From the NCBI RefSeq assembly GCF_001465295.1, contig NZ_CP011034.1, positions 1,140,001-1,172,000 on the forward strand: DNA of 32,000 nucleotides, read 5' to 3'. The notes under the pieces are model-generated. The model did no database searches. It was not told where the DNA came from and worked only from the letters and a program-made list of their open reading frames with translations. The position numbers were made by a program, and so were the translations under genes. This stretch comes from Pseudoalteromonas translucida KMM 520. Lineage in GTDB: Bacteria > Pseudomonadota > Gammaproteobacteria > Enterobacterales > Alteromonadaceae. Below, one piece after another: positions 6,035 to 24,792 of this stretch. Position 1 is the stretch's first letter. Each line of letters opens with the position of its first letter.

Positions 6035-7594
6035 ATGAGTACCACTGGAGTAACAAAACAACATGAAGATGAGCATTCATCTACAACAAAGTATTTGGCA
6101 GGGGTTGATATACCGGTATTTTTAATCAGTGGTGGCATTCTTGTGCTATTTGCTGTGCTAGCACTTTATGATATTGATTTGATGTCGGGTTGGATCAATA
6201 CCGCTTTTGCTTTTTCTACTAAAACGTTTGGTGCCTTTTGGCAAATATTATTGCTTTCGACCTTTATAATTGGGTTGTTTTTAGCCTTTGGACGTACTGG
6301 GAAAGTGGTATTAGGTGGCTTAAAAAAGCCAGAAATTACTACCTTTAAGTGGATCAGCATTATTATGTGTACACTCCTTGCTGGTGGCGGGGTGTTTTGG
6401 GCTGCTGCTGAGCCAATGGCACATTTTATTTCGCCGCCGCCAATTTTTGGTGGTGAGTCAGGCACTAAAGAGGCTGCATTTAATGCTTTAGCGCAAAGCT
6501 TTATGCATTGGGGATTTTTAGCCTGGGCTATTTTAGGCAGCCTGACTGGCATAGTGTATATGCATTTACATTACGAAAAAGGTTTACCACTTAAGCCGCG
6601 TACTTTGTTGTATCCGGTATTTGGCGATCGCGTAATGAAAGGCACATTTGGTGCTATTGTCGATTCGTGTTGTGTTATAGCTGTAGTAGCAGGCACGGTA
6701 GGCCCTATTGGCTTTTTAGGCTTGCAAGTAAGTTTTGGTTTAGAAAAACTATTTGGTATTCCAGATACTTATACCACTCAAGTGGCCATTTTATTTAGTT
6801 TAATTGCAATTTATACTCTATCTGCCGTAAGTGGTGTTACTAAAGGGATTCAATTACTCAGTCGCTTTAATGTAATTTTAGCCGTGGCGTTAATGCTGTT
6901 TATTTTGCTGATGGGGCCTACAGCCTTTATTTTTGATAGCTATATTCATTCGTTTGGGCTTTATATTAATAACTTTATTCCTATGGCCACTTTTCGTGCC
7001 GATACCGCTTGGTTAGACTGGTGGACAGTATTTTTTTGGGGCTGGTTTTTAGGTTATGGACCTTTAATGGCTATGTTTGTTGCACGAATTTCGCGCGGCC
7101 GTACTATTCGTGAAATGATCACGCTTATTTCAATAATTGCCCCTGTTATTACTTGTTTTTGGTTTACGATAGTAGGTGGTTCAGGAATATTTTTTGAGTT
7201 AGCAAACCCGGGTGTTATTTCAGAACCCTTTGCGGGCTTAAATTTACCTGCTGCACTGTTGGCCATTACTGAGCAGCTGCCTATGGGCTTTGTTATATCG
7301 GTATTGTTTTTAATTTTAACCACAATATTTGTAGCAACCACAGGTGACTCTATGACCTACTCGGTGTCTATGGTAATGACGGGTAACGATCATCCGCAAA
7401 CATCCATTAGAGTGTTTTGGGGCATTATGATGGGGGTTATGGCAGCAATATTAATTTCGATAGGTTCAGGTGGTATTTCTGCACTGCAGTCGTTTATTGT
7501 AGTAACTGCCGTACCTGTATCTTTTGTGTTGTTACCATCACTTTGGACGGCCCCACAAATTGCGAAAAAAATGGCTACTGAGCAAGGTTTATAA
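6035..7594 (+). CDS. BCCT-family (betaine/carnitine/choline-type) transporter, paralog 1
   Basis: 519 aa with about 12 TM segments. BCCT signature region WTVFFWGWFLGYGPLMAMFVARISRGRTIRE. SD aggag lies 7 nt upstream. Confidence 0.9.
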   Translation: MSTTGVTKQHEDEHSSTTKYLAGVDIPVFLISGGILVLFAVLALYDIDLMSGWINTAFAFSTKTFGAFWQILLLSTFIIGLFLAFGRTGKVVLGGLKKPEITTFKWISIIMCTLLAGGGVFWAAAEPMAHFISPPPIFGGESGTKEAAFNALAQSFMHWGFLAWAILGSLTGIVYMHLHYEKGLPLKPRTLLYPVFGDRVMKGTFGAIVDSCCVIAVVAGTVGPIGFLGLQVSFGLEKLFGIPDTYTTQVAILFSLIAIYTLSAVSGVTKGIQLLSRFNVILAVALMLFILLMGPTAFIFDSYIHSFGLYINNFIPMATFRADTAWLDWWTVFFWGWFLGYGPLMAMFVARISRGRTIREMITLISIIAPVITCFWFTIVGGSGIFFELANPGVISEPFAGLNLPAALLAITEQLPMGFVISVLFLILTTIFVATTGDSMTYSVSMVMTGNDHPQTSIRVFWGIMMGVMAAILISIGSGGISALQSFIVVTAVPVSFVLLPSLWTAPQIAKKMATEQGL

Positions 7595-7620
7595 GCAATA
7601 GACGTTAAAGCTAAATAAAG

Positions 7621-7657
7621 GATTGATTGCCCAACGAGAGGCAATCAATCTTATTTA
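7621..7657. terminator. Bidirectional terminator between BCCT-1(+) and the 245-aa gene(-)
   Basis: 11-bp stem gattgattgcc/ggcaatcaatc with loop caacgaga, followed by T-rich sequence. Confidence 0.75.
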
Positions 7658-7661
7658 CAGG

Positions 7662-8399
7662 TTAGCGCCCCCCTGCATCGAGTCTAGAGCGATCGGTGTT
7701 TTCTACCAAGACTCCCGCACCGAGATAATTTATTTTTAGCCAAATATCTTCGTCAATTTCGATCCCATGATTAACTGAGTGATTTTTGTTTTTTTCAATT
7801 TTTTCAGCGCTAATCATATGACTGTCATCACTTTGAAGTGAAGTAGTTAAATCGACCCTTGAACTACAAATAATGGTTAACGCTTGCTTGTCATCATCAG
7901 TGGTTATTAAGTTGGTTACACCGCTGCTATAGCTAGGATAACGTCTACCCGAAAGAATAGCTGCAGTATGTTCGGTAATTATATCGCTGCCATTTTTCCA
8001 ATAAGCCGCAGTACTGATCCCTCTGCGACCTCGGTCGGTCAATGCTTTTAGTACAAACATTCTGTTATGACAGTTATGCACAGTTACGGTTGCAATACCT
8101 GTTTCGAGTGCTTTTGCATGGGCCAGATCTACTGCTGCAGCAATACAATTTAGTGCACTACGATTGTGCGCATCAATAATTGCAGAAGTGCTATCTTCAT
8201 AAATTACATTACTTAGCGGCTTGTCAGCATCATCACAAAGGTATGGCAGCGCCTGGCGTAATTCTTTTAAGCCATTTAAACCATGTTTTTCTAACCACAA
8301 CACCATGTTTGCAGCATCTTCATAGTTACCAACAAAATAGCCACTAGCTTCAAAACACCTACGTAGCGAGGCTTTAAGTTCATTCATAGAAATATTCAC
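7662..8399 (-). CDS. Conserved-looking hypothetical protein, 245 aa; N-terminus resembles the Ldh_2 (malate/L-lactate/DpkA-type dehydrogenase) fold pattern but is about 100 aa shorter
   Basis: GTG start with an AAGGAG SD 7 nt upstream; the SD overlaps the stop codon of the upstream 569-aa gene. The pattern ELKASLRRCFEASGxxxxxAxxxAxxLxxxxLxG...TVTVHNCHN recalls Ldh_2 N-termini. This is motif-level only and needs an HMM check. Confidence 0.6.
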   Translation of the reverse strand: MNISMNELKASLRRCFEASGYFVGNYEDAANMVLWLEKHGLNGLKELRQALPYLCDDADKPLSNVIYEDSTSAIIDAHNRSALNCIAAAVDLAHAKALETGIATVTVHNCHNRMFVLKALTDRGRRGISTAAYWKNGSDIITEHTAAILSGRRYPSYSSGVTNLITTDDDKQALTIICSSRVDLTTSLQSDDSHMISAEKIEKNKNHSVNHGIEIDEDIWLKINYLGAGVLVENTDRSRLDAGGR

Positions 8400-8410
8400 A
8401 AAGAATCTCC

Positions 8411-10120
8411 TTATTGTTTTGGTGTTAATGGCATAAACCAGTCATCAATAAATGGTTTACCAATGTCTTCAAGTAATGGTGCGCCTTGAAACATGGTATT
8501 TCTTACCCATAATCGAGATCGAGGATCAAATTTACTCACGCCAAAAAAAGCAAGTTTACAGCGCAGTAAATGTATAGGTAACACATCGCGATCGAGTAAG
8601 TTGGCCTGGATATCACCATATACACTGCGGTTCATGCTTTGAATACGCCTTACAATACCGCGTAACTTAGGGTGAGCTACCATAAAGCGCGCAGTAATGT
8701 GCTCCGGGTTGTTTACTATATATTCAACCAGCATGTTATAGCATTTGCGCACCGCGTAACCTACGGCAAGCGCCATCGCTTTCTTTTTACCTTCTACGTC
8801 GGCAATACTACCGAGGCGAGGTTCCATTTTCTCTTCTGAGCGATACCAATAAGTTTCTTTAGCGCCCTCAGCGTCAAAGTCTATAGCCAGCGCCCAATCA
8901 TAACGTTGTTCAATAACTGCTTTTAACTGCTGTAATGGCATAAGTGGATCTAAATCTAAAAACTCATCGGAACAGTGAAAGTCTTCAAGCTCATCAACTA
9001 AATCCGGATAAATTTCTAACATAATAGAAACTAACATTTCCTGACCTTGTAAAGAGCAGTGTTGTTCACTATAAGCAATTAACTCATCCCAACTATTAAA
9101 GCCGCCAGTAACCAGTGCTTTAAGTTTTTGCATGTCTTGGACGACAATTTTGTTTAGAGCTGTTTGCGATGCATCTTCAGTAATGGTTTCATGTGTGTAC
9201 TGAACGGCACGGGTTATTAACTCAACCGTTAATTGTTGAGTATAAGCAGTAATTGCACCCAGTGCTCTGATACGAGCTAGTGCGAGTTCTCGCATAGATA
9301 TCCACTGGTTTATGAGTAGTGGATGATTTACTAAATAGGGTGCCATGCCTAGCCCGGTAGAATTACCAATGCCAAAATAACGTTTAATATCATGGCGCAT
9401 AGGGGTAAATGTGGCAGCATTACGGTGGCGGGCAATATGCTCTACTTGCAGTAAACTAAAGTTACGTAGCATAAAACAAACAAACATCTCACTGGCAAAT
9501 GGGCGTGCAAAGTCAGGAAATTTTTGTTGAACTTTTTCCCAATCAGCCATACCCAATTTACCACTGCCATAAACAGCAGTAGTGCGATACAAATAGCCTA
9601 CTTCTGCTATTTTTGCTACTTCGGGTTGCTTACCGCTGGCTAGTTGCTCAACCACATAATCAAAGTTACGGGCACTGCGGTTAGCACGCGATAACACAAA
9701 AACCCGCGAGTCAACGCGTCCGGCTTCTTGTTTTGGTACATTTTGCTTTAACTGGACAACATATTCTGGGGTCACTTGGCCTTCAACTAACGCCATAGTT
9801 AAATCCCACTTTGTAGCAATTACGCGATCATTACGCTCTTCTGACAGTAGCTGTTCAGAAAAAAGTACAAAACTAAAGAATCCATCGGGTGCTTGTACTT
9901 CATAAACAACCGTACCAAATCCTTGTTCATTTAGATCTAAAGTGGCAAGTTCAATTTTCCAACGCTCGCGAAAAATTCGACGTACCAAAGTGCGCATAAA
10001 GCTTAGGCGGCTTTGATGTAAAGAGCCTAACCTTTCTAGTTTCATAACTTGACTGGCAGGGCGCAGTGGCAGTGCGTTGTCGCCCCAAAGTGAAGCGTGA
10101 ATATCGGCATGTTTAGTCAT
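8411..10120 (-). CDS. Hypothetical protein, 569 aa, no family recognised
   Basis: Long uninterrupted ORF with normal composition and no TM segments. Translationally coupled to the 245-aa gene downstream. Confidence 0.7.
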   Translation of the reverse strand: MTKHADIHASLWGDNALPLRPASQVMKLERLGSLHQSRLSFMRTLVRRIFRERWKIELATLDLNEQGFGTVVYEVQAPDGFFSFVLFSEQLLSEERNDRVIATKWDLTMALVEGQVTPEYVVQLKQNVPKQEAGRVDSRVFVLSRANRSARNFDYVVEQLASGKQPEVAKIAEVGYLYRTTAVYGSGKLGMADWEKVQQKFPDFARPFASEMFVCFMLRNFSLLQVEHIARHRNAATFTPMRHDIKRYFGIGNSTGLGMAPYLVNHPLLINQWISMRELALARIRALGAITAYTQQLTVELITRAVQYTHETITEDASQTALNKIVVQDMQKLKALVTGGFNSWDELIAYSEQHCSLQGQEMLVSIMLEIYPDLVDELEDFHCSDEFLDLDPLMPLQQLKAVIEQRYDWALAIDFDAEGAKETYWYRSEEKMEPRLGSIADVEGKKKAMALAVGYAVRKCYNMLVEYIVNNPEHITARFMVAHPKLRGIVRRIQSMNRSVYGDIQANLLDRDVLPIHLLRCKLAFFGVSKFDPRSRLWVRNTMFQGAPLLEDIGKPFIDDWFMPLTPKQ

Positions 10121-10306
10121 GTTAATGATCTCATATTATACCGTTTGAGTACGTTTGATTGATCACACGTTGCGCGTAACTGGGATTAAGTGTTAACCAA
10201 TTTAAATGGTATAAATAATGTGTACTCAAAGTGGTGCTATTTTACTGGTGGCGCCATTTTTGACCAATAGCTGGAATTAGCACAAGTCAAAAAAGTCTAT
10301 CTATCG

Positions 10307-10321
10307 ATAAGTAAAACTTAT
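10307..10321. promoter_or_regulatory. Putative LysR-type operator (ATAAG-N5-CTTAT, contains T-N11-A) upstream of the 569/245-aa operon
   Basis: The sequence ataagtaaaacttat is a perfect dyad, identical in both half-sites to the site at 11417. Confidence 0.5.
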
Positions 10322-10515
10322 TGTTGCGGACTGTTTTTTGATTCTATTGAAGTATTTATATATTAAAATTGTTTTAAATGTAACTTAATAACGTTAGTTA
10401 GCGTGTTTCTTGTTGTTTGTTTTGTTAAGTTGAATTTAGTGATCATCTAGTTAAAAAGTTAATCACTATCGCAAAGCATATTAGGTTTGTAACTCATTAT
10501 ACGTGCTCTGGGGCA

Positions 10516-11415
10516 CTATTGTTGCTCAGCCCCGTGCTTTAAAATAAAGTCAGTTAACGCTTGTGCCGCTGGGGCAAGTGACTTGTTTTTAAGTTGTACT
10601 ATGCCTATTTCGCGCACCACATGCGGGGTTTTTAATGGAATAAAACACAAGGTGTTGTTGTGTTGCGGAAAAGCAAAACGCGGTAATGTGGTTATACCCA
10701 TTCCAGTTTCTAGCATGGCTATAAGCGATAGCATATTTGAAATATAAAACTGCGAGTTTTCGAGTAGCGGCTCAGCAGCTGTTTTTTTAAGTAAGCGCGA
10801 AGTGCCATTACTTATAAATCGCTGTTGTTGTAGATCCTGCCAGTGTAGTTCTTGCACGTGTGTAAGAGGGTTATCTTTATGACAAACAACACCTATTTCA
10901 TCCTGCCATATAGGGGTAAACAGTACATTATCGTGTTCATGACCAGGTGTAAGACTGGCAATTCCTAAATCAACTTGTTGTTTTTCGACTTTTTTTAATA
11001 CTGTTTCAGAATTATCATCATAAAGACTAATGTGTAACTCAGGAAGATCTGCCACAAATTTAGATAATAAGTTAGGCAGTAATCTACAGCCGATGGAGGG
11101 CACAGATGCAAGGCGTAAATGGCCCGTTTTATTTTGGCGCATTAATACCATATCTTGAGAAATACTGTCGTGATGGGCAATCAGCTCTTTTGCTTTGGGC
11201 AAAAAGTTTCTACCAAATGGTGTAAGCTCAGTCATAGTACTTTTCGTACTTCGCTTTTCAAAAACATCGGCACCTAATTTATTTTCAAGGTCACGAATCG
11301 ATAAAGAGATTGCCGGCTGTGTACGACATGCCTTTTGCGCAGCGTAATGAAATCCTTTTAATTCAGCAACCCAGACGAAATGTCGTAGCTGGGTAATTTT
11401 AAATTCAGGTAGCAC
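10516..11415 (-). CDS. LysR-family transcriptional regulator of the locus
   Basis: 299 aa. N-terminal wHTH (FHYAAQKACRTQPAISLSIRDLENKLG) plus a LysR substrate-binding domain. GTG start with an AAGGA SD. Divergent from the ALDH operon. Confidence 0.9.
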   Translation of the reverse strand: MLPEFKITQLRHFVWVAELKGFHYAAQKACRTQPAISLSIRDLENKLGADVFEKRSTKSTMTELTPFGRNFLPKAKELIAHHDSISQDMVLMRQNKTGHLRLASVPSIGCRLLPNLLSKFVADLPELHISLYDDNSETVLKKVEKQQVDLGIASLTPGHEHDNVLFTPIWQDEIGVVCHKDNPLTHVQELHWQDLQQQRFISNGTSRLLKKTAAEPLLENSQFYISNMLSLIAMLETGMGITTLPRFAFPQHNNTLCFIPLKTPHVVREIGIVQLKNKSLAPAAQALTDFILKHGAEQQ

Positions 11416-11416
11416 G

Positions 11417-11431
11417 ATAAGTTTTCCTTAT
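11417..11431. promoter_or_regulatory. Putative LysR-type operator (ATAAG-N5-CTTAT) in the lysR/ALDH divergent region
   Basis: The sequence ataagttttccttat is a perfect dyad with T-N11-A. It starts 2 nt upstream of the lysR start codon, the position expected for autoregulation. Confidence 0.55.
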
Positions 11432-11508
11432 CAAAATATATTAATTATTAATTTTAGTTATTAGAGCATGGTTCTTATACTGAATCCAATTATTTAATGG
11501 AGGTATTT

Positions 11509-12954
11509 ATGTCATCAAATTCAGTGTTTCAAAATTACATCGCAGGTCAGTGGGTTGAAGGTAAAAGTTCAATTGAGAATATTAGCCCAGCAGACTTAAG
11601 CGATACGATAGGACATTACGCCCAAGCAGATAAAGCACAAACAGAAGCAGCAATTGATGCTGCGATTGTAGGTCAACTCGAATGGCAAAAAAGTGGTCTT
11701 GAAGAGCGCTATCGCGTTTTAATGGCCATTGGTGATGAGTTAATTGCCCGTAAAGATGAGCTTGGCAAACTACTAGCACGTGAAGAAGGCAAAACATTAG
11801 CAGAAGGCGTGGGCGAAACTTATCGTTCAGGTCAATTTTTTCATTACTACGCTGCAGAAGTGTTACGCCAAATGGGCGAAACGGCCGATTCAGTACGTCC
11901 AGGAGTTGAAATTGAAACCCGCAGAGAACCTGTTGGTGTTGTGGGTATTATTACTCCATGGAATTTTCCTACGGCTACTGGCGCATGGAAAATTGCTCCG
12001 GCACTGGCCTTTGGTAATGCCATTGTATTTAAACCCGCTAACCAAGTACCAGCAAGTGCATGGGCATTAACCGAAATCATCTCACGTCAAGGTTTACCAG
12101 CAGGTACGTTTAACTTAGTTATGGGGCCTGGCGCTGAAGTAGGTGATTTACTTATTAATTCTAAAAAAATTAATGCGTTAACATTTACAGGTTCACTGGA
12201 AACAGGCCGTAAAGTGGCTATAGCTACAGCAACAAACCTAGTTAAATGTCAGCTTGAAATGGGCAGTAAAAATGCCTTAATCGTACTAGACGATGCCGAT
12301 TTAGATAATGCAGTGGAATGCGCTGTGGGTGGTGCATTTTTTGGTACTGGTCAAAAATGTACTGCATCATCGCGCTTAATTGTTACCGAAGGTATCCATG
12401 ACCGTTTTGTTGCTGCTGTAATTAAAAGAATGGAACAGCTAGTAGTGGGTCACCCACTTAGAGATGGTGTGCATATTGGTGCTGTCGCCGATGCACGTCA
12501 AATGGCACAAAACTTAAAGTATCTACAAATAGCTAAAGACGAAGGCGCTACGCTTGCCATCGGTGGTGAAGTGATCACTGAGGAAACCGAAGGTTATTAC
12601 TTAAAGCCTGCTCTGTTTATTAATACTACTAACGATATGACCATTAACCGTGAAGAAGCGTTTGCGCCAATTGCTTGTGTTATCAAAGTTAAAGATTATG
12701 AAACAGCCTTAGCCACATTAAACGATACAAACTATGGTCTTACAGGCGGAATTTGTACGCAATCACTTAAATATGCGAGTGACTTTAAACGCCGCGCACA
12801 AACAGGCTGTGTCATGGTTAACTTGCCAACAGCGGGTACTGACTACCATGTACCATTTGGTGGTCGTAAAGAGTCTAGCTTTGGTGCACGTGAGCAAGGT
12901 ACTTACGCGAAAGAGTTTTACACCATAGTTAAAACAACTTACATCCGCTCATAA
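11509..12954 (+). CDS. NAD(P)-dependent aldehyde dehydrogenase (2,5-dioxovalerate/ketoglutarate-semialdehyde dehydrogenase-like)
   Basis: 481 aa from the ATG at 11509, which is preceded by ggagg. Catalytic Glu context LEMGSKNA and Cys context GQKCTASSR. Cofactor motif ITPWNFP. Confidence 0.9.
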   Translation: MSSNSVFQNYIAGQWVEGKSSIENISPADLSDTIGHYAQADKAQTEAAIDAAIVGQLEWQKSGLEERYRVLMAIGDELIARKDELGKLLAREEGKTLAEGVGETYRSGQFFHYYAAEVLRQMGETADSVRPGVEIETRREPVGVVGIITPWNFPTATGAWKIAPALAFGNAIVFKPANQVPASAWALTEIISRQGLPAGTFNLVMGPGAEVGDLLINSKKINALTFTGSLETGRKVAIATATNLVKCQLEMGSKNALIVLDDADLDNAVECAVGGAFFGTGQKCTASSRLIVTEGIHDRFVAAVIKRMEQLVVGHPLRDGVHIGAVADARQMAQNLKYLQIAKDEGATLAIGGEVITEETEGYYLKPALFINTTNDMTINREEAFAPIACVIKVKDYETALATLNDTNYGLTGGICTQSLKYASDFKRRAQTGCVMVNLPTAGTDYHVPFGGRKESSFGAREQGTYAKEFYTIVKTTYIRS

Positions 12955-12968
12955 TCTAAGGAATCATT

Positions 12969-13961
12969 ATGCATAACGATCTAATTGTCATTGATGGATT
13001 GCAGTATTCCAATTGGAATAGAACTATTTTTGAACAACTTAAAAGTGGTGGCGTAACAATGGTGCATGTGACCATTGTTTACCACGAACAAATTCGTGAA
13101 ACATTATTACGTATCGCACAGTGGAATCGCCTGTTCGAGATGCATAATGATCTGATTATGCCAGTAAAAAGTACAGATGATATTCACCTTGCCAAAAAGT
13201 TAGGCAAAGTGGGGATTATGTTTGGTGCACAAAACTGTTCAACCATTGAAGATGACATTGGTATGGTGGAAATCATGCGCGAGTTAAATTTAATGATTAT
13301 GCAGCTCACTTATAACAACCAAAGCTTGTTAGCTTGTGGTTGTTATGAGGCTGAAGATAGCGGTGTTACCCGTTTTGGCCGCCAAGTTATTAAAGAAATG
13401 AACCGCGTAGGCATGATTGTTGATATGAGCCATAGTGGTGAGCGAAGCACGCTGGAAGCAATTGAAATATCGCAGCGTCCTATCGTCATTTCGCATGCTA
13501 ATCCAAGTAGTTTTCATGCCGCTAAACGTAATAAATCAGACACTGTACTAAAAGCGCTTGGTGAGTCGGGCGGTTTATTAGGGTTTAGTTTATATCCATT
13601 TCATCTTAAAAATGGCCCCGATTGCACTTTAAACGAATTTTGCGACATGGTGGCAAATACGGCCGATTTAATGGGTATAGATAATATTGGTATTGGTACC
13701 GATTTATGCCAAGAGCAGCCAACCTCAATTTTACAGTGGATGCGAAACGGACGTTGGTCTAAAGAAATGGATTATGGCGAAGGCTCTAAGTCGGATGCAG
13801 ATTGGCCCAAACCGTTACCTTGGTTTAAAGATAGTAGCGATTTTCCCAATATTACAAAAGGGCTTCAGGCACGAGGTTTTCATGATAATGAAGTTGCAAA
13901 AATAATGGGCTTAAATTGGCTTAATCTTTTAAATAAAGGCCTGAAACCACAAGACGTATAA
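12969..13961 (+). CDS. Peptidase M19 (renal/membrane dipeptidase) family homolog, non-canonical
   Basis: 330 aa. Family motifs DMSHSGERS, PIVISHANPSS and GIGTDL are present. The N-terminal DGHxD metal-ligand motif is replaced by VIDGLQYSN, and LTHxxxN is replaced by LTYNNQS. Confidence 0.8.
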   Translation: MHNDLIVIDGLQYSNWNRTIFEQLKSGGVTMVHVTIVYHEQIRETLLRIAQWNRLFEMHNDLIMPVKSTDDIHLAKKLGKVGIMFGAQNCSTIEDDIGMVEIMRELNLMIMQLTYNNQSLLACGCYEAEDSGVTRFGRQVIKEMNRVGMIVDMSHSGERSTLEAIEISQRPIVISHANPSSFHAAKRNKSDTVLKALGESGGLLGFSLYPFHLKNGPDCTLNEFCDMVANTADLMGIDNIGIGTDLCQEQPTSILQWMRNGRWSKEMDYGEGSKSDADWPKPLPWFKDSSDFPNITKGLQARGFHDNEVAKIMGLNWLNLLNKGLKPQDV

Positions 13962-14048
13962 ATTAATTTGTTATTAAGGAGTGATATCAAAAAGTAATAC
14001 AACATATTGATAAACTATAACTAAAAGAGATCCATCAGGAGACGAGAA

Positions 14049-15608
14049 ATGAATACCACCAGTACAACGATAAAACAGGATATGGGTACATTACCCTGCA
14101 ATAAAATTCTGCCTGGGGTAGATATAGCGGTACTATTGATCAGTGGGGGAGTACTCGTGTTGTTTGCTGCACTAGCGCTTTACGATATTGACTTGATGTC
14201 GAGTTGGATCAATTCCGCCTTTGCATTTTCTACTAAAACTTTTGGCGCATTTTGGCAAATACTACTGCTTTCGACTTTTGTTATCGGTATATTTTTAGCG
14301 ATCGGTCGCACGGGTAGGGTTGTTTTAGGTGGGTTAAAGTCTCCTGAAATTTCGACGTTTAAATGGATCAGCATCATTATGTGTACGCTGCTTGCTGGTG
14401 GAGGCGTATTTTGGGCTGCCGCTGAGCCAATGGCGCACTTTATTTCATCGCCGCCGCATTTTGGTGGCGAGTCGGGCACTAAAAACGCGGCTTTTAATGC
14501 ATTAGCACAAAGCTTTATGCATTGGGGGTTTTTAGCCTGGGCTATTTTAGGCAGCCTAACTGGCATAGTGTACATGCATTTACATTACGAAAAAGGCTTA
14601 CCGCTTAAACCACGTACTTTACTTTACCCTGTGTTTGGCGACCGTGTAATGAAAGGCGCTTTTGGTGCTATTGTTGACTCATGTTGTGTACTTGCGGTTG
14701 TTGCCGGTACTGTAGGACCAATTGGCTTTTTAGGACTACAAGTGAGCTTTGGTTTAGAAAAACTATTTGGCATTCCCGATACCTATACAACTCAAGTGGT
14801 TATTTTATTTAGCTTAATTGCTATTTACACGCTATCGGCAGTCAGTGGTGTGACCAAAGGGATTCAGATGCTAAGTAGCTTTAATGTTATTTTAGCGGTA
14901 GCGCTAATGTTATTTATTTTAGTAATGGGGCCAACGGCATTTATTTTCGACAGCTATATTCAATCATTTGGTCTTTATATTAATAACTTTATTCCTATGG
15001 CGACCTTTCGCGCCGATACCGCCTGGTTGGATTGGTGGACGGTATTTTTTTGGGGCTGGTTTTTAGGCTATGGTCCATTAATGGCGATGTTTGTTGCACG
15101 TATTTCACGCGGTCGCACTATTCGTGAAATGATCATGCTGATCTCTGTAATTGCCCCTGTTATCACCTGTTTTTGGTTTACGATAGTAGGTGGTTCAGGA
15201 ATATTTTTCGAGCTGGCTAATCCCGGTGTCATTTCAGAACCTTTTACTGGTTTTAACTTACCTGCAGCGCTATTAGCCATTACTGAGCAGCTGCCTATGG
15301 GTTTTGTTATCTCAGTATTATTTTTAATATTAACCACTATTTTTGTGGCAACCACTGGTGATTCGATGACCTATTCAGTCTCTATGGTAATGACTGGAAC
15401 TGATCACCCGCAAACATCAATCAGGGTGTTTTGGGGAGTTATGATGGGGGTTATGGCTGCTATTTTAATCTCTATTGGCTCTGGAGGTATTTCTGCTTTG
15501 CAATCGTTTATTGTAGTAACCGCAGTGCCAGTGTCTTTTGTACTGTTACCTTCGCTTTGGACCGCGCCGAAAATAGCTAAAAAAATGGCTGATGAGCAAG
15601 GTTTGTAA
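14049..15608 (+). CDS. BCCT-family transporter, paralog 2
   Basis: 519 aa. My manual comparison finds about 30 substitutions against paralog 1 after the first 22 residues or so. Both share the same SD context, atccatcaggagacga. Confidence 0.9.
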   Translation: MNTTSTTIKQDMGTLPCNKILPGVDIAVLLISGGVLVLFAALALYDIDLMSSWINSAFAFSTKTFGAFWQILLLSTFVIGIFLAIGRTGRVVLGGLKSPEISTFKWISIIMCTLLAGGGVFWAAAEPMAHFISSPPHFGGESGTKNAAFNALAQSFMHWGFLAWAILGSLTGIVYMHLHYEKGLPLKPRTLLYPVFGDRVMKGAFGAIVDSCCVLAVVAGTVGPIGFLGLQVSFGLEKLFGIPDTYTTQVVILFSLIAIYTLSAVSGVTKGIQMLSSFNVILAVALMLFILVMGPTAFIFDSYIQSFGLYINNFIPMATFRADTAWLDWWTVFFWGWFLGYGPLMAMFVARISRGRTIREMIMLISVIAPVITCFWFTIVGGSGIFFELANPGVISEPFTGFNLPAALLAITEQLPMGFVISVLFLILTTIFVATTGDSMTYSVSMVMTGTDHPQTSIRVFWGVMMGVMAAILISIGSGGISALQSFIVVTAVPVSFVLLPSLWTAPKIAKKMADEQGL

Positions 15609-15626
15609 ACGTTAAAATTAAGGATA

Positions 15627-15655
15627 AAAGGGCTATGGCTATAGCCTTTTCATTT
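15627..15655 (+). terminator. Rho-independent terminator after BCCT-2
   Basis: Stem ggctat/atagcc (plus a G-U pair) with loop ggct, followed by tttt. Confidence 0.65.
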
Positions 15656-15758
15656 ACTGCATTTTAATAGAATTAATTTTAAAGTCCCAAATTTTTCCAA
15701 CAGTTTGGGCAAAACAACCAACCATAATGTTACTTATCCAATTAGAGCTGAAACTAAA

Positions 15759-16133
15759 ATGAAAACACCTGTTAAAACTAATTTATTCGCATCTAAAGCC
15801 CCATTAGAATGGGCAATTATTGCCAATGGCACATTATCAACTGCACAAATACCAATTGATGCAGAAGGCAAAGTTGTTGCCGGTGGTATTGAAGCACAAG
15901 CGCGTCAAACAATGGAGAACTTTAAGCACACAATTGAAGCAGCTTCGCTTACTATGGATGATGTAACGCAAGTCCTTATTTACGTGACCGAACGTTCGCA
16001 GTTGGCCACTTTTAATAAAGTGTACGCAGAGTATTTTAAGCCACCTTATCCAAATCGTGCTGCTATGATAGTAGCAGGCTTAGCCCGAGAAGAGATGCTG
16101 TGTGAAGTAGTGGCTTACGCTGCAGTACCTTAA
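15759..16133 (+). CDS. RidA/YjgF/UK114-family (reactive enamine/imine deaminase-like) protein
   Basis: 124 aa from the ATG at 15759; the track TTG at 15705 is less likely. RidA-like core IEAQARQTMENFKHTIEAA and C-terminal PNRAAMIVAGLAREEMLCEV. Confidence 0.8.
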   Translation: MKTPVKTNLFASKAPLEWAIIANGTLSTAQIPIDAEGKVVAGGIEAQARQTMENFKHTIEAASLTMDDVTQVLIYVTERSQLATFNKVYAEYFKPPYPNRAAMIVAGLAREEMLCEVVAYAAVP

Positions 16134-16192: not shown

Positions 16193-16217
16193 AAGCCAGC
16201 ACTATGCTGGCTTTTTA
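16193..16217 (+). terminator. Rho-independent terminator after ridA-like gene
   Basis: Stem aagccagc/gctggctt with loop actat, followed by a T-run. Confidence 0.8.
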
Positions 16218-16267: not shown

Positions 16268-17512
16268 ATGCGAGCAACTTATATTTCATTACTAGCGTTA
16301 TTTTTTAGCTGTTTTATTTTATTATTAGGTAATGGCTTACTCAATGTGTTACTTCCGGTACGTATGGGGCTTGATGGCGTAGATATAGATACTATAGGCA
16401 TGGTTTTGTCGTTGTACTTTGTAGGCTTATTAATAGGGGCTCTTTATAGTATTAATTTGATTCGCCGAGTGGGGCACATTCGCATGTTTGCTGGATGTGT
16501 GGCACTGGGAGCTATTAGTGTACTTATGTATAGTATTTATCCCAGTATTATTTTGCTGGCAGTTATGCGCGTTATTATTGGTTTTTGTAATGCTTGCGCA
16601 TTTACTGCTATGGAAAGTTGGTTAAGCGATAGCTCAACTAAACAAACCCGAGGTAAAATGCTTGCAGTGTATAATTCGGTTGTTTTGTGCGGCTTATTTG
16701 GTGGGCAGTTTTTTATGGGCTTAGCAGAGCCTCAACAATCTACATTATTTGTGTTGGTAGGAATATTACTATGTGCATCCGTTATCCCGTTAATATTTAG
16801 CCGCCATACCGGGCCGACTATTCAAGACGTAACCGCTATGCCCTTACTGGCTTTGTATCGCATTTCGCCATTAGGGGTAGTGACTTGTTTTATTTCTGGC
16901 TTGATTTACTCCGCCATTTTTAATCTACTGCCAGTGTTTGCACTGCAATACAATATTATTGAGTTTCAGCTTTCTTTGTATATGGGCGCAGCAATTTTTG
17001 GTGCGTTTTTATTGCAATTCCCAGTGGGTTATTTTTCAGATCGATACGACCGACGCTCAGTACTACTTATTTTATTGTGTATTTCGGTATTGGCCGATAT
17101 TGCAGTAGTACAGTTTGTATCATTAAATATGATCCCGGCATTATTTATTGTTACCGCACTAACTAGTGGCATTATTGCGTGTACCTATCCGCTAAGTATT
17201 TCGGAAGCGTTTGATCGCTTGAAAAAAAGTGAAATGGCGGCCGCCATGGGCAGTATGATTTTGGCATTTGCCTTAGGTGGGATCATTGGACCTTATACAA
17301 CGTCAGTTATGATGAAAGAATTTGGGGTCAATGCAATGTTTTACTTTATGGCATTGGTACAGCTTTTTCTCGCAGTTTTTGTGGTTTATCGTATGATTAA
17401 GCGCCCAGCACTGCCAATCGACGAACAAGAAGTGTTTGTAATGCAAAGTCCTGCAATTTCTCCGGCAATAGAATTTGACCCGCGTACAGAGCAAGAGCCC
17501 GAAAGTAACTAG
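16268..17512 (+). CDS. MFS transporter (YcaD/YfkF-like)
   Basis: 414 aa with about 12 TM segments. The MFS loop motif is suggested by IRRVGHIRMF and DRYDRRSV. Confidence 0.8.
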   Translation: MRATYISLLALFFSCFILLLGNGLLNVLLPVRMGLDGVDIDTIGMVLSLYFVGLLIGALYSINLIRRVGHIRMFAGCVALGAISVLMYSIYPSIILLAVMRVIIGFCNACAFTAMESWLSDSSTKQTRGKMLAVYNSVVLCGLFGGQFFMGLAEPQQSTLFVLVGILLCASVIPLIFSRHTGPTIQDVTAMPLLALYRISPLGVVTCFISGLIYSAIFNLLPVFALQYNIIEFQLSLYMGAAIFGAFLLQFPVGYFSDRYDRRSVLLILLCISVLADIAVVQFVSLNMIPALFIVTALTSGIIACTYPLSISEAFDRLKKSEMAAAMGSMILAFALGGIIGPYTTSVMMKEFGVNAMFYFMALVQLFLAVFVVYRMIKRPALPIDEQEVFVMQSPAISPAIEFDPRTEQEPESN

Positions 17513-17533: not shown

Positions 17534-18292
17534 TTATGAGTTAAACAAATCGTGACTAACTTGAAATAAAATTAGCGCGCAGGCGCTTAAAGAAAGTAGC
17601 GCAATAGCGGGTTTAAGATAGTGAGCTTTAAAGTACTTTTCTAATCGTCGAGACAGTAAAAATCCAAATAGCACTGCGGGTAATAACGGCAATGCAAGCT
17701 GAAGTTGATAATAACTAAAGTTACCCGTCACTATTAATAAAAATAATGATAAAATAGTTGATATTAAAAAGAATATACTTAGCTCGGCACGTACCGAACT
17801 CGCATTACTATTTTGATACACAATAGCGATAGGCGGCCCGCCAATCGAAGTAGAAGTCCCCGCGAGACCAGAGAAAAAACCACCGATAAATAAATTTTTT
17901 GCTGAGTAACTAATTTGCCAATGACTGTAGGTTAATAGCACGCACAGTATAATTAATATTGAAAATAATATGGTGAAAAACAACGGCGGTAATAGTAACA
18001 ATAGTGCCACAGCTAATAACGACCCCATAAAACGCCCGCATAAAGCAATGCTAATACAACTAATCTGTATGTTCTTTTTATTATTTAGTACACTTAATAG
18101 CGATAAGCCTAATCCTAAAAGCAAAATAGGGGCGGGTATAAAAGCAGGATCAATCAATACTAAAATTGGCGCAGCAATAACCCCTAAGCCAAAACCAAGT
18201 AAACTTTGCAGTGCAGCAGCACCAGCAATAAGGGTTAAAACAAGGATTAAAATTAAAGGGTCGGTGAGCATAATCACATAGCAAGGAGGCAT
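17534..18292 (-). CDS. TauE/SafE (TSUP, DUF81) family anion exporter-like membrane protein
   Basis: 252 aa, very hydrophobic. Has the Gly-rich helices typical of TSUP (LLGFGLGVIAAPIL, GTSTSIGGPPIAIV). The start codon is uncertain and could be the internal ATG at 18271. Confidence 0.75.
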   Translation of the reverse strand: MPPCYVIMLTDPLILILVLTLIAGAAALQSLLGFGLGVIAAPILVLIDPAFIPAPILLLGLGLSLLSVLNNKKNIQISCISIALCGRFMGSLLAVALLLLLPPLFFTILFSILIILCVLLTYSHWQISYSAKNLFIGGFFSGLAGTSTSIGGPPIAIVYQNSNASSVRAELSIFFLISTILSLFLLIVTGNFSYYQLQLALPLLPAVLFGFLLSRRLEKYFKAHYLKPAIALLSLSACALILFQVSHDLFNS

Positions 18293-18551
18293 AAGTGGAT
18301 GAATTATCTTAAATATTTAATGTCGAGTCTAATTAGGAGTTTTTATCTTTTAATAATAATTACTAGTGGCTGAAGTTGTTATTAGTTATACCCATATAAT
18401 TCAATTTATTTAAGTTCCCTTTATATTCAGCCACTTAAGTTAACTGATTTCACACCCAGAGTAAGTCTTCTTATGATCACCCTGCATAAAATAATAAATA
18501 TTTAACAACCAACGGTAAATATCGTTATTACCAAGTAAGAAAGCGATATGT

Positions 18552-18836
18552 ATGCATTTAAATAACTTAGCCGCTAAATACATTATTGGCGATATTACCG
18601 TATCAGCTTCACGTTACTATTTAACTGCCATGGTAGGCGAGAATAAAGTAGATGCAGTACAGGTAGCTTATAATCGCGACCATCTAAGCTTGGCAGCTCG
18701 CTTACAAAGCTCTAACGATATGCGTTTTTACCAAGGACTAAAACCCAGCGGTGAAATAGTTAAAGAAAAATGTGGGAAATATATTCAGGCTATAAAATTT
18801 ACAATATTCAACTACAAGCCACTTATGCCAATGTAG
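18552..18836 (+). CDS. Hypothetical protein, 94 aa
   Basis: ORF only, with a weak SD. No family recognised. Confidence 0.4.
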   Translation: MHLNNLAAKYIIGDITVSASRYYLTAMVGENKVDAVQVAYNRDHLSLAARLQSSNDMRFYQGLKPSGEIVKEKCGKYIQAIKFTIFNYKPLMPM

Positions 18837-18837
18837 C

Positions 18838-19011
18838 ATGGACTCTGTAAGTGGTTTAACCGTAGACACCAGCCAAGTGATGCTTGATGCAATATATAAT
18901 CATAAAGCGGGGAGCTTTTACGTAGAGTACAGTATGTGGGTCGATGAAGCCGAGCAAATATTTGAAGCTGCTGATGAGTTGTTGATTAGCTATCGATTCG
19001 ATTTTTGCTGA
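18838..19011 (+). CDS. Possible 57-aa acidic protein, start 1 nt after the preceding stop
   Basis: Sequence MDSVSGLTVDTSQVMLDAIYNHKAGSFYVEYSMWVDEAEQIFEAADELLISYRFDFC. The TAG-c-ATG junction suggests coupling, and there is no SD of its own. It ends just before a strong terminator. Confidence 0.3.
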   Translation: MDSVSGLTVDTSQVMLDAIYNHKAGSFYVEYSMWVDEAEQIFEAADELLISYRFDFC

Positions 19012-19016
19012 TGCAT

Positions 19017-19051
19017 AAAAAAGGGCGCCAATATTATTGGCGCCCTTTTTT
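19017..19051. terminator. Strong bidirectional rho-independent terminator
   Basis: 10-bp GC-rich stem gggcgccaat/attggcgccc with loop att. An A-run lies on the left and a T-run on the right. It serves the convergent units on both sides. Confidence 0.9.
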
Positions 19052-19055
19052 GTTA

Positions 19056-19166
19056 TTACTTAGATTTTCTCTTTCTTGGTTTTGCAACTTCGACAGTATT
19101 TGATTCTTTCAGTTTACGTTTTTCTTTTAACGATAAAGCGGGTTTTTTCTTATCATTTTTAGACAT
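19056..19166 (-). CDS. Highly basic micro-protein, 36 aa (copy A): MSKNDKKKPALSLKEKRKLKESNTVEVAKPRKRKSK
   Basis: Not in the ORF track because it is under 60 aa. SD aggtggtga lies upstream of the ATG and a terminator follows immediately. A paralog 394 nt upstream differs mostly by synonymous changes and one in-frame codon indel. Confidence 0.65.
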   Translation of the reverse strand: MSKNDKKKPALSLKEKRKLKESNTVEVAKPRKRKSK

Positions 19167-19300
19167 ATTCACCACCTAAACAATAAATAATAGATTAATA
19201 TAAAATACTTTTTTACCAACTAAAACCCTATCAACAATCAAGGTAAGTTACCTCCTTACTTTGTCGAAAATAAACGTTAGTTACTTATAAATTATTCGCA

Positions 19301-19388
19301 TTAAAAGTGAAGCGGGGGTTAGTTTCCTTCTACCGATAAGCCGACTGATCCAAGTTCGGCATAATCGTAAATAACCACCGCAGCTCAC
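19301..19388 (-). terminator. Long structured element ending in a U-run (probable terminator of micro-protein gene B)
   Basis: On the minus strand the outer stem is gtgagc.gcgg / cccgc.ttcac, followed by ttttaa. An inner 5-bp hairpin pairs gccga with tcggc (19340-19360). Confidence 0.45.
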
Positions 19389-19449
19389 TTTATTTACCTA
19401 ATTAAAGGCATAGCTAATAACTTTAAAACCCAGCGTTATTCAAAGTAGC

Positions 19450-19563
19450 TTAAGCCTTTCTCTTTTTCCTTGGTTTTGCCACTTCGGTTGTATTCGATTC
19501 TTGTTTTAACTTACGTTTTTCTTTTAACGATAACTGTGGTTTTTTCATATCATTTTTAGACAT
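19450..19563 (-). CDS. Highly basic micro-protein, 37 aa (copy B): MSKNDMKKPQLSLKEKRKLKQESNTTEVAKPRKKRKA
   Basis: SD aggtga upstream. Paralog of copy A, with a conserved leader of about 100 nt. Confidence 0.65.
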   Translation of the reverse strand: MSKNDMKKPQLSLKEKRKLKQESNTTEVAKPRKKRKA

Positions 19564-19920
19564 ATCATCACCTATTAATAAATAACAAATTAATTACTTC
19601 TGCTTTTAGTAAACTAAAAATTAAAGAAACAATATCAATCGGCTATTCACCTCCTTTAATAAGATTAAATAATTACTGCTCTTCGTTTATATTGCTTAAA
19701 ACTAAACGAAGAAACTTTATGCTTTTACTGTATTTAATAACCAAATTTGCCACGCGCTATACAAGAGCGCATAAATAATATTGATAATAAAAACACAGTA
19801 ATATTTAAATTTCACTTTAATCTAGGCGATAGAAAGCTTGCCGAGAATGGCCTAAATTAAAGTTAAATTAAAAATTTATAGTAAATTCTGTGAAACAGAT
19901 GGACGCAGAGAAGCGTCCGC

Positions 19921-19992
19921 TTAAGCGGGGAATTTTAGGGCGAAGCTCCCCAAACAAATAATATAATTAAATAAAAAAATATATGTTTTCAT
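19921..19992 (-). CDS. Possible 23-aa hydrophobic micro-ORF: MKTYIFLFNYIICLGSFALKFPA
   Basis: ATG preceded by ggag, but the spacing is very short. The stop is followed directly by the hairpin ggacgc/gcgtcc (19901-19918). Speculative. Confidence 0.2.
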   Translation of the reverse strand: MKTYIFLFNYIICLGSFALKFPA

Positions 19993-20300
19993 AGCTCCAA
20001 TATAGCAGCTTAAATAATAACTACAAGCTATCTTAGATGCTTTAATTAAAGATTAAATTTATGGGTAAAATAGACATGAACTTATTAAAAAGCAATCCAT
20101 TTTTTAAGCGTATAACTTATGCGGCTCTCAAGTAAGCAAAGAAAATAGATGGCAAAAGATTTATTATTTTAACCAACTCCCTACCTCAAGTTAATGGAGT
20201 TAACGTCGTACTGTACTTATTAACACCAACACGACCAAATTAAAGGCTTAATCTTGCAATGCTCGCCATTAATAGCTGCAAGTATAAATAGCAATTAGTT

Positions 20301-20327
20301 ATAAAAATCCCATATAGCATATGGGAT
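20301..20327 (-). terminator. Rho-independent terminator for the 20440-20934 gene
   Basis: 9-bp stem atcccatat/atatgggat with a 3-nt loop, followed on the minus strand by ttttat. Confidence 0.7.
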
Positions 20328-20439
20328 TAATATAGTGTGTTTTTAAACGCTAGCTATAATATGCGACATTTTTTGTAACAAGAGTTAAAAACAGGTTTAA
20401 ATATTTACACCTGCTAGGCTAAAGTAAATAAAGTTATTT

Positions 20440-20934
20440 TTATTTGAAACTTCTAGTTTGAGCACCCCATGCAAAAACTAATGCGTAAAGTATATGGCCA
20501 ATGAGTGCAACCCAAGTGGTTTCGGTGAAGCCGATAAACGGCGGCAGACCAATAATTAAATGCGCCACAACGTAGAGTGCGAATACCCAAAGTACAATAC
20601 CGTACACTACAGCTGTAATACTCCAGTGAAGCGAGGGCATGATTGCTTTGCGCATTGGTAGTACTACAAATAACCAGCCTAATGGGTAAAGTATTAAGCC
20701 TGTAATATAGTGAATCAATTCGGGAGTTCCTGTAGGTACTGTACCGAATATAACCTCAATCATAGTTCTGGGGAGCTTAATTGTTGATAGCTCAGCAAAA
20801 CCTAGAAGAGGAGACAGCGATGGCCCCCAAAAATCAAAGATAACCGTAGCGAGTGCGCCTGCAAATAGCATTATTAAAATAGACGAAAACATATTCGCCG
20901 AGAGACGTTCACTTTCATTATCGTGATTAGTCAT
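20440..20934 (-). CDS. Small integral membrane protein, 164 aa, family not recognised
   Basis: Four to five hydrophobic helices. SD aagga lies upstream of the ATG. Confidence 0.7.
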   Translation of the reverse strand: MTNHDNESERLSANMFSSILIMLFAGALATVIFDFWGPSLSPLLGFAELSTIKLPRTMIEVIFGTVPTGTPELIHYITGLILYPLGWLFVVLPMRKAIMPSLHWSITAVVYGIVLWVFALYVVAHLIIGLPPFIGFTETTWVALIGHILYALVFAWGAQTRSFK

Positions 20935-21123
20935 AGTTTTTTCCTTGTCGAGAGCAAGCTGATAGTTCCTTAAATGGCTTGTCTCAGTAAGCGTTCAAAA
21001 GATTATAAAGCCCCGTGGCATGTAGTACTAGCTGAGGACTGAGGTAGGCTGTCGCGTTTGACCTTTAATAACGGCACAAGCGACATTTAATAAAAGATTA
21101 ACGTGGCTGATAGTATACCGCTG

Positions 21124-21153
21124 TTTATAGTTTGTAAATGTCTTTTATATCAA
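21124..21153 (-). promoter_or_regulatory. Putative sigma70 promoter (TTGATA-18 nt-TATAAA) for the 20440-20934 gene
   Basis: Both hexamers read on the minus strand. This promoter would give a leader of about 180 nt. Confidence 0.35.
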
Positions 21154-21685
21154 GTATAGCAAGGCTTACAGCAGGTTACGTATACAATTTATAAATATTT
21201 AATTATAGTTAAACTGTAATTATTTAATTTGTTAAAATGATGTTGTCGGGAGTTGGTAACAATATCAATCTTATTAAAAATATGATCATTGTAGCTTATT
21301 AAATAGCTTACCTATTATTTTAGGTAATAATATAAAATGAAGCTTAAAGCAGACGCTGAAAATGAATTTTTAGTAGCAAATTAAATGGCTAATTTAACTT
21401 TTTAATCTCTGCGAGTTTAATTCCTCGTCGCTTGCGGCGTAAAGGTTATTGACCTTTAACAGCTAATTAAAATATCCTTCTTTGCGAAGCGAAAATTTTG
21501 GCACGGGGTAATTCATTCCTCACTTTCATTCATTTTATTGAATATAAGTATAGAGTGAGGGCTTATACATTTTTACTGTGTAAATTTTTATTATTTAAAA
21601 ATGATTACGTAGCAATACTTTAAGTTATTTGTTAAAACTATTAAATTATTATTCTAGGTTTAAATGTGAGTATAAGGAGTATTTT

Positions 21686-21856
21686 ATGTCGAAAAAAGTA
21701 GTAACTTTTGAATACGAAAAAGAAACAAAAAACAGTGTTCGTTACAAAGAAGTGCCTGATGAAGGCGTTGCCCCTATTGTAGGATCTTTGTATGTTCAGA
21801 AGTGGTTTGCTGGGAATAGCAAAACGATTGAAATAACGATAGATAAAAAAGACTAA
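21686..21856 (+). CDS. Small hypothetical protein, 56 aa: MSKKVVTFEYEKETKNSVRYKEVPDEGVAPIVGSLYVQKWFAGNSKTIEITIDKKD
   Basis: Strong SD aaggag 6 nt upstream of the ATG at 21686; the track TTG start at 21629 is unlikely. The sequence looks beta-rich. Confidence 0.6.
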   Translation: MSKKVVTFEYEKETKNSVRYKEVPDEGVAPIVGSLYVQKWFAGNSKTIEITIDKKD

Positions 21857-22058
21857 TTAGCGGCATTATTTTTGCGCCATAGTTTTTGTTTAGGTAAAAA
21901 CGACTAGTAAATAGTGCGTTTTATTTAAGAGCGCATAATATATTTTTAAACTAATAAAGTTTTTTATAGCGTATTATAGTAGCTCATTTATTATTTATAT
22001 TAGGCTTAAGTAAAAGTACGCTAGCCTCACAAATTTTACTAACAAGGAAGTTGTATAG

Positions 22059-22502: not shown

Positions 22503-22528
22503 GTGAGTTATTAAATAAACTATAATTT

Positions 22529-22554
22529 GTCGGGTGGCGCTGCGTTTATCCGAC
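22529..22554. repeat. REP-like extragenic palindrome
   Basis: Sequence gtcgggtggcgctgcgtttatccgac. Its reverse complement, gtcggataaacgcagcgccacccgac, has the CGGATAA...CCG.C architecture of enterobacterial REP units. Only one copy is in this window. Confidence 0.5.
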
Positions 22555-24790: not shown

Positions 24791-24792
24791 GT

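Follow-up and report, generated by a model that had tools for sequence, protein, structure and literature searches.

The subject of this work is a gene cluster at positions 6035-16133 of a 32,000-nucleotide (nt) stretch of Pseudoalteromonas translucida KMM 520 (NZ_CP011034.1, positions 1,140,001-1,172,000 of the forward strand). The whole stretch is called the window, and all coordinates are counted within it. With a probability of roughly 0.86, judged from gene content, gene order and protein similarity, the cluster is the P. translucida ortholog of the operon for catabolism of homarine (N-methylpicolinate), homABCDER plus homT, described by Ferrer-Gonzalez et al. (Nat Microbiol 2026, PMC13236597). 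An initial annotation of this DNA had proposed an undescribed osmolyte or quaternary-amine system. The pathway is already published and "undescribed" no longer holds, because synteny and similarity through Cobetia match the cluster to the hom operon, a kind of match that the annotation itself had named as refuting. The functional class that it had proposed, a LysR-controlled and BCCT-fed catabolism of a marine N-methylated osmolyte, was right, and homarine stood on its list of compounds for testing. From the sequence, we infer that the pathway is active in P. translucida KMM 520.

The published hom operon and its counterpart in P. translucida

In PMC13236597, the seven genes ACFLL8_11490-11520 of Cobetia sp. 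OBi1 are homE-A-B-T-C-D-R and are induced by homarine. HomC is annotated there as "peptidase", HomD as aldehyde dehydrogenase, homT as a BCCT-type "GBT" (glycine betaine transporter), and homR as a regulator. In Ruegeria pomeroyi, SPO3188-3192 correspond to homA, B, C, D, and R, with SPO3188 annotated as "hypothetical" in the literature. Deletion of homD abolishes growth on homarine and deletion of homT reduces it; growth on this substrate is likewise lost when a transposon interrupts homB, homC, homD, or homR. HomA and HomB are a predicted heterodimer with adjacent genes in 97.7% of 11,755 genomes, and the criterion of the genome survey was the presence of homC and homD within 10 kb of homA/B. 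Among genomes that carry homE, half have it beside homA and half beyond homD; it is mostly absent from Alphaproteobacteria. The experimental data cover Cobetia sp. OBi1, R. pomeroyi, nine isolates, and field communities (PMC13236597). A literature search found no second paper on the hom genes.

In the window, the order given by the initial annotation (BCCT-1, 245-aa and 569-aa proteins, LysR, aldehyde dehydrogenase (ALDH), M19, BCCT-2, and RidA; aa, amino acids) was borne out by the open reading frames (ORFs), and Pfam confirmed the families BCCT, LysR, ALDH, M19, and RidA. The features of the locus, with hom names according to the proposed orthology, are as follows.

6035-7594, + strand: BCCT-1, extra HomT paralogue (Pfam BCCT, 2e-155)
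7621-7650, - strand: terminator-like hairpin with a 12-bp stem, between the convergent BCCT-1 and homA
7662-8399, - strand: homA, 245-aa DUF3726 protein (Pfam DUF3726, 5e-24; Ldh_2, 1.7e-8, N-terminus only)
8411-10120, - strand: homB, 569-aa protein (no Pfam match; 46% identity with the 599-aa protein of Cobetia)
10307-10321, - strand: putative HomR operator ATAAGTTTTACTTAT (T-N11-A), upstream of homB (exact inverted repeat)
10516-11415, - strand: homR, LysR-type regulator (Pfam HTH_1 and LysR_substrate)
11417-11431, + strand: putative HomR operator ATAAGTTTTCCTTAT, between the divergent genes homR and homD
11497-12954, + strand: homD, NAD(P)+ aldehyde dehydrogenase (Pfam Aldedh, 1e-152)
12969-13961, + strand: homC, non-canonical M19/amidohydrolase-superfamily hydrolase (Pfam Peptidase_M19, 2.6e-81)
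14049-15608, + strand: homT (BCCT-2), predicted in-operon homarine transporter (Pfam BCCT, 5.5e-154)
15759-16133 (listed ORF from 15705), + strand: homE, RidA-family imine/enamine deaminase (Pfam Ribonuc_L-PSP, 2.9e-21)
16193-16213, + strand: predicted hairpin and T-tract terminator at the end of the homD-C-T-E unit, 3' of homE

The assignment of names runs through a Cobetia locus, whose proteins were reached by a search with a Halomonadaceae homolog. Their 90% cluster includes C. marina, a species at 98.5% average nucleotide identity to strain OBi1 (PMC13236597). The locus has LysR (- strand), ALDH, M19, BCCT, a 599-aa protein, a 262-aa protein (Ldh_2/DUF3726), and RidA, which is the published order reversed. 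Because the two orders match, HomA would be the DUF3726 protein, HomB the protein of about 570-600 aa, HomC the M19 homolog, HomD the ALDH, HomE the RidA protein, HomT the BCCT transporter, and HomR the LysR regulator. Each of the seven Cobetia proteins matches the expected window gene over nearly its full length, and there is no competing match in the window. The identities are 71% for HomD, 69% for HomC, 64% for HomE, 54-55% for HomT, 49% for HomR, 46% for HomB, and 30% for HomA. The product of 8411-10120 is PTRA_a1231 at 100% identity.

With respect to the survey criterion, homA and homB of the window are adjacent (an 11-nt gap on the same strand, homB upstream), homC and homD lie 1.4-3.9 kb from homB and thus well within 10 kb, and the orthologous genes are joined by a LysR-type homR, a BCCT-type homT, and the optional homE. 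Like the Cobetia operon, the locus brings together all seven gene types, with homA and homB translationally coupled, the regulator and a BCCT gene inside the cluster, and homE in one of its two published positions. In contrast, the window genes form two divergent/tandem transcription units instead of one co-directional block, and they include an extra, diverged BCCT paralogue not shared by other Pseudoalteromonas.

Several points weigh against this assignment. Pseudoalteromonas is not mentioned in the main text of PMC13236597, and the experiments there were made with other genera. The Cobetia locus that provides the connection consists of C. amphilecti/marina-cluster proteins and is not that of strain OBi1 itself. 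HomA (30%) and HomB (46%) are more diverged from their Cobetia counterparts than HomC and HomD (about 70%), so that the range of substrates may have shifted. No mgd or sox genes occur in the 32-kb window, no enzyme could be assigned to the reduction of the dehydro/imino intermediate of the pathway proposed below, and no cofactor-binding signature for O2 activation was found in HomA or HomB.

Conservation of the hom cassette

A scan with one genome per species gave at least 599 loci, the best 80 of which were fetched, and partner frequencies were counted in the 54 related loci with enough flanking DNA. The partners of homB were M19 (94%), DUF3726 (91%), ALDH (81%), LysR (72%), BCCT (69%), and RidA (54%), and all six occurred together in 29 loci. 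This association is far above chance. The whole cassette, comprising LysR, ALDH, M19, BCCT, RidA, the ~570-aa protein, and DUF3726, is found among unrelated flanks in the betaproteobacterium Alcaligenes faecalis and in Reinekea forsetii, and the cassette also occurs with unrelated neighbours in 80 further species. It is a self-contained cassette, strongly co-conserved over Gamma-, Alpha-, and Betaproteobacteria. In Alcaligenes, Reinekea, and Cobetia, homA and homB overlap by 1-4 nt.

The HomB family is large, with more than 8000 relatives scored, all of them named hypothetical, and 1313 representatives at the 50%-cluster level; identity is still at least 70% across orders. Oceanospirillaceae genera share the window-type arrangement, and their HomB proteins are 72-75% identical to that of the window. 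The homE gene adjoins homA in the loci of Cobetia, Halomonadaceae, Marinobacter, and Pseudomonas, and lies beyond homD in the window and in the loci of Oceanospirillaceae, Alteromonadales, and Alcaligenes. This arrangement agrees with the published survey statistics.

HomB of Ruegeria arenilitoris falls in a small subclade with Roseovarius, Leisingera, Aestuariivita, and Kiloniella, nearer to the gammaproteobacterial types at 53-60% identity, and a search with it as query did not retrieve R. pomeroyi. A subclade without R. pomeroyi suggests that hom genes were transferred horizontally and that the Roseobacter group holds at least two hom lineages. In many window-type loci (L004, L006-L011, L014, L016, L018, and L020), homA is directly followed by a gene for a TauE/SafE-family membrane protein that is 35-55% identical to the one at 17534-18292 (- strand) of the window. 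The MFS transporter gene next to it in the window (16268-17512, + strand) accompanies it in L004 as well. It would be pure speculation to regard the TauE/SafE protein as an accessory anion exporter of the cassette, e.g., for formate. In the Cobetia locus (L084, 1171-2636), an MTHFR gene and a DUF5981 gene are directly beside homR, and neither is found in the window; their position suggests a link to one-carbon handling.

HomA and HomB, the presumed ring-opening pair

The position of the 569/245-aa pair as the first-step enzyme, proposed in the initial annotation, agrees with the HomB/HomA assignment. The two proteins had been called unassignable, which still describes the 569-aa protein, having no recognisable family or fold, and no longer the 245-aa protein, which is a DUF3726 protein and a truncated Ldh_2.

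HomB has no match in Pfam, NCBIfam, or the PDB by sequence, and single-sequence searches with HomA and HomB against the PDB returned nothing. A weak PPDK_N match in HomB (E 0.066) was taken as chance. An AlphaFold (AF2) model of HomB was built from an alignment of 83 sequences of 45-87% identity. It has a predicted local distance difference test score (pLDDT) of 89.5 and a predicted template modelling score (pTM) of 0.91, and shows an alpha/beta part at the N-terminus and a long, helical part at the C-terminus. A Foldseek search of the PDB with this model gave no match (best E 0.32, TM ≤ 0.12), and the modelled fold is thus without a relative among solved structures. About 60 columns are invariant over sequences 36-79% identical, the window protein included. 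They comprise the motifs RTTAVYG-G-K-G and GIGN-TGLGM-P and many Arg, Asp, Glu, His, and Tyr residues, and no Cys. HomB is presumed to be the catalytic subunit for the opening of the pyridinium ring.

HomA scores 34.4 bits against the Ldh_2 profile (PF02615; gathering cut-off 38.8), over profile positions 1-117 of 333. The HomA family profile matches YiaK (3e-8), sulfolactate dehydrogenase, and DpkA at HomA residues 1-135 and ~185-228 only, and accordingly the central ~150 residues of the Ldh_2 fold are missing. HomA is therefore predicted to have a truncated fold of the Ldh_2 type (NAD(P)H oxidoreductases). Compared with the Ldh_2 family (YiaK, sulfolactate and ureidoglycolate dehydrogenases, and DpkA), HomA aligns over ~135 residues at its N-terminus and ~45 at its C-terminus, whereas ~150 residues in the middle of the 333-residue domain are absent and HomA is found only together with HomB or fused to it. 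At the position of the Ldh_2 catalytic His, HomA has H39-G40; among homologs, Gly is present in 93% and His in only 47 of 71. DpkA is a delta1-piperideine-2-carboxylate / N-methyl-amino-acid dehydrogenase, and its substrates are 2-carboxy cyclic imines and N-methyl-2-imino acids, which resemble homarine and the proposed imino intermediate.

In Arcobacter, HomB and HomA are fused in one 804-aa polypeptide, as verified by alignment. Many representatives of 760-930 aa and of 840-960 aa look like HomB-HomA fusions, and the 840-960-aa forms may carry a further domain. Such natural fusions suggest that HomA and HomB form one two-subunit enzyme. In a model of the Arcobacter fusion (pLDDT 76.9), the C-terminal DUF3726 part matches Ldh_2 structures with a Foldseek probability of 1.0, and the HomB part has no Foldseek match.

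The closest parallel in chemistry is the trigonelline (N-methylnicotinate) pathway TgnA-F of Acinetobacter baylyi ADP1, reportedly described by Perchat et al. 2018. In that pathway, TgnA acts as flavin reductase and TgnB as flavin-dependent oxygenase, and the end products are succinate semialdehyde and methylamine. In both systems, an N-methylpyridinium carboxylate is opened to an N-methylformamido aldehyde/lactol C7H9NO4, followed by C7H9NO5 and amide hydrolysis, the opening by HomB/HomA being the proposed step. The hom system differs in its end product, N-methylglutamate, in the truncated Ldh_2 fold predicted for HomA, and in HomB, which has neither a known fold nor a flavin domain. The homarine intermediates reported in PMC13236597 share their formulae with the Tgn intermediates. 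The same source describes FAD-binding motifs in HomA and compares HomA/HomB with TgnAB, a pair of flavin reductase and oxygenase (PMC13236597). However, no flavin-related Pfam domain was found in HomA or HomB of the window and Cobetia even at E ≤ 10, and at this threshold HomA of both matched nothing but DUF3726 and Ldh_2. The flavin analogy was thus not reproduced, and neither predicted fold is a known flavin-enzyme fold. The lack of a flavin signature makes a TgnAB-type enzyme less likely and leaves the notion of an analogous reaction unaffected.

A tentative and rather doubtful extension of these results is that HomB/HomA might represent a new, flavin-free class of pyridinium ring-opening enzymes unlike TgnAB, in which HomA binds homarine or donates a hydride. 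HomA might transfer a hydride to the NAD+-like N-methylpyridinium, and HomB might then oxygenate and cleave the dihydropyridine (C7H7NO2 + 2H + O2 = C7H9NO4). The speculative hydride role is suggested because HomA would descend from reductases of 2-carboxy cyclic imines.

The downstream enzymes HomC, HomD, and HomE

The Peptidase_M19 match of HomC begins at profile position 30, and its closest solved structure is 2I5G, an "amidohydrolase" (3e-71, end-to-end alignment). The initial annotation had called the protein a non-canonical M19 homolog, and the zinc site agrees: the HxD motif has given way to LQY (in DGLQY) and the bridging Glu to Gln, while the second metal site keeps its two His and its Asp. 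The uncharacterised 2I5G likewise lacks HxD and the bridging Glu, and typifies the M19 subgroup to which HomC belongs. The HomC core also aligns with classical M19 dipeptidases (human DPEP1 1ITQ, Sco3058 3ID7, and GliJ 5LWZ), whereas the binuclear zinc site differs from theirs. The substrate of HomC is probably an N-formyl/N-acyl dehydroamino acid and not a dipeptide. A similar M19-like gene, together with a hypothetical gene, may precede dgcAB in Pseudomonas, which would hint at a wider role of the HomC subgroup in the metabolism of N-methyl amino acids. A glycine-betaine/dimethylglycine link on this ground was considered and dropped, since the locus can be explained without it.

HomD is an ALDH of full length, and its nearest NCBIfam models are KGSA and 2,5-dioxovalerate dehydrogenases, both below their cut-offs. 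In HomE, PYPNR aligns with PYPAR of solved RidA proteins, and the conserved Arg for 2-imino-acid deaminase activity is kept. The most likely start of homE is ATG 15759 rather than TTG 15705, because the resulting 124 aa match the homologs, including the gene call in P. porphyrae. A hairpin GGCTAT..ATAGCC in A/T context lies at 15628-15652 between homT and homE and is followed by a 110-nt gap; homE may be partly uncoupled from the genes upstream of it.

Proposed pathway

Labelled homarine is converted to C7H9NO5, C6H9NO4, C6H9NO3, N-methylglutamine, N-methylglutamate, and glutamate, with the N-methyl group retained through ring opening, and mgdABCD (N-methylglutamate dehydrogenase) is present in 8 of 9 degrading isolates, according to PMC13236597. 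The formulae come from this source, while the assignment of steps to enzymes and the structures behind the formulae are proposed here. HomT (BCCT-2), together with its duplicate BCCT-1, would import homarine. HomB/HomA would then cleave the C5-C6 bond with a net addition of O2 and 2 H, leading from C7H7NO2 to an N-methylformamido aldehyde C7H9NO4, which HomD would oxidise to the acid C7H9NO5, a formula observed in the published tracing. In the next step, HomC would add H2O and release formate to give N-methyl-2,3-dehydroglutamate / N-methyl-2-iminoglutarate, C6H9NO4, the formula of which was also observed (PMC13236597). Addition of 2 H would yield N-methylglutamate (C6H11NO4), an observed product, or the imine might be hydrolysed with the help of HomE. 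Finally, an N-methylglutamate dehydrogenase encoded elsewhere in the genome would produce glutamate. By atom counting, the published formulae appear to agree with this order of steps. A role of HomE in the handling of enamines/imines would make it dispensable in many lineages.

Regulation and the twin BCCT transporters

The window contains two copies of the exact inverted repeat ATAAGTTTT(A/C)CTTAT, which has the T-N11-A form of a LysR box; one lies upstream of homB and the other between homR and homD. Of the 31 ATAAG-N5-CTTAT sites counted in 1.41 Mb of related loci, 28 are within ~300 bp of the edges of LysR, ALDH, or HomB genes. ATAAG-N5-CTTAT is kept at the corresponding position in related loci (L002-L020, L049, L053, and L060). 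The motif is likely the operator of HomR, which would bind it at the two promoters and activate homB-homA and homD-homC-homT-homE. An operator shared by both hom promoters would tie the two transcription units together. In addition, predicted terminators bracket the hom units. This conserved putative operator is not mentioned in the accessible portions of PMC13236597 and is a new addition.

BCCT-1 and BCCT-2 are 91% identical in amino acids and 82% in nucleotides, and the duplicated segment extends from the ribosome-binding site to the stop codon only. Since most of the nucleotide differences (214 of 275) are at third codon positions, both copies appear to be maintained by purifying selection. 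The P. porphyrae locus has a single BCCT gene, with BCCT-1 absent, which suggests that the duplication is lineage-specific. No HomR box is present in the region upstream of BCCT-1.

Alternative explanations

Among the alternatives, the one of most weight, though unlikely, is that the window-type ("type I") cassette uses the same enzyme family on another substrate and degrades a related N-methylated or 2-carboxy N-heterocycle, for example trigonelline, picolinate, or a betaine of the N-methylpipecolate type. The presumed specificity pair HomA and HomB shares only 30% and 46% identity with Cobetia, against 69-71% for the downstream enzymes, the gene arrangement differs between the two gammaproteobacterial types, and a duplicated, diverged BCCT could mean a broadened or different solute range. 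On the other hand, the ~60 invariant HomB columns hold from 36% to 79% identity, window protein included. The published experiments validate the function in a gamma- and an alphaproteobacterium that bracket much of the family, report homarine-responsive homB transcripts from Oceanospirillaceae, and the survey in the same paper counts the arrangement with homE downstream of homD as hom (PMC13236597). These points argue for homarine.

It is very improbable that the locus encodes an osmolyte or quaternary-amine pathway with no published counterpart. The 569-aa family would invite this reading, as its members are all named "hypothetical protein" and have no Pfam or NCBIfam model; "DUF3726" was found in no paper, and a keyword search on the gene combination gave nothing relevant. 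Nevertheless, exactly this gene set is described with mutants, transcriptomics, and isotope tracing in PMC13236597, and the Cobetia synteny and similarity connect the window to it. A loose neighbourhood, in which BCCT osmoprotectant importers happen to lie beside unrelated housekeeping enzymes that share no pathway, is the least credible explanation and nearly negligible. The location of BCCT-1, outside both operons and without an operator box, would fit it, whereas the cassette travels as a unit among unrelated flanks in three proteobacterial classes, with an operator common to both promoters and terminators at its edges. Ectoine, carnitine, dimethylsulfoniopropionate, ergothioneine, and sulfonate catabolism were dropped because their signature enzymes are absent from the locus.

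Genomic surroundings

Housekeeping genes make up both flanks. The upstream flank of the cassette encodes DAHP synthase, RlmM, and CysZ, and the downstream flank the MFS transporter, the TauE-family protein, speA/speB, and an efflux system. The stretch 18300-22900 is AT-rich (GC content 30-36% compared to ~40% elsewhere) with few ORFs, of which 20440-20934 (- strand) and 22059-22502 (+ strand) have no Pfam match, and it gave no Rfam or tRNA match. The genes that follow are ordinary ones: the pair speA (arginine decarboxylase) and speB (agmatinase) at 22877-25716, and genes for an HlyD-type adaptor, a FUSC-family efflux protein, and a SpoU-type rRNA methylase at 26084-29842. Rfam and tRNA scans of the 32-kb window gave no match. 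A sigma-70 promoter scan performed no better than on shuffled sequences, and its result was not used.

Significance

The new contributions of this analysis are the operator motif, the BCCT duplicate under purifying selection, the HomB model, the HomA fold, and the finding that no flavin signature could be detected. The remaining interest lies in the ring-opening chemistry of HomA, the remnant of an NAD(P)H oxidoreductase, and HomB, with its unseen fold, a pair that has no recognisable cofactor site. Among the small nitrogen-containing metabolites that marine phytoplankton and invertebrates release, homarine is one of the most abundant. Bacteria turn it into glutamate by way of the hom operon, which SAR11 carries as well. 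Thousands of "hypothetical" and "DUF3726" entries and their neighbours can now be named HomB, HomA, HomC, HomD, HomE, HomT, and HomR.

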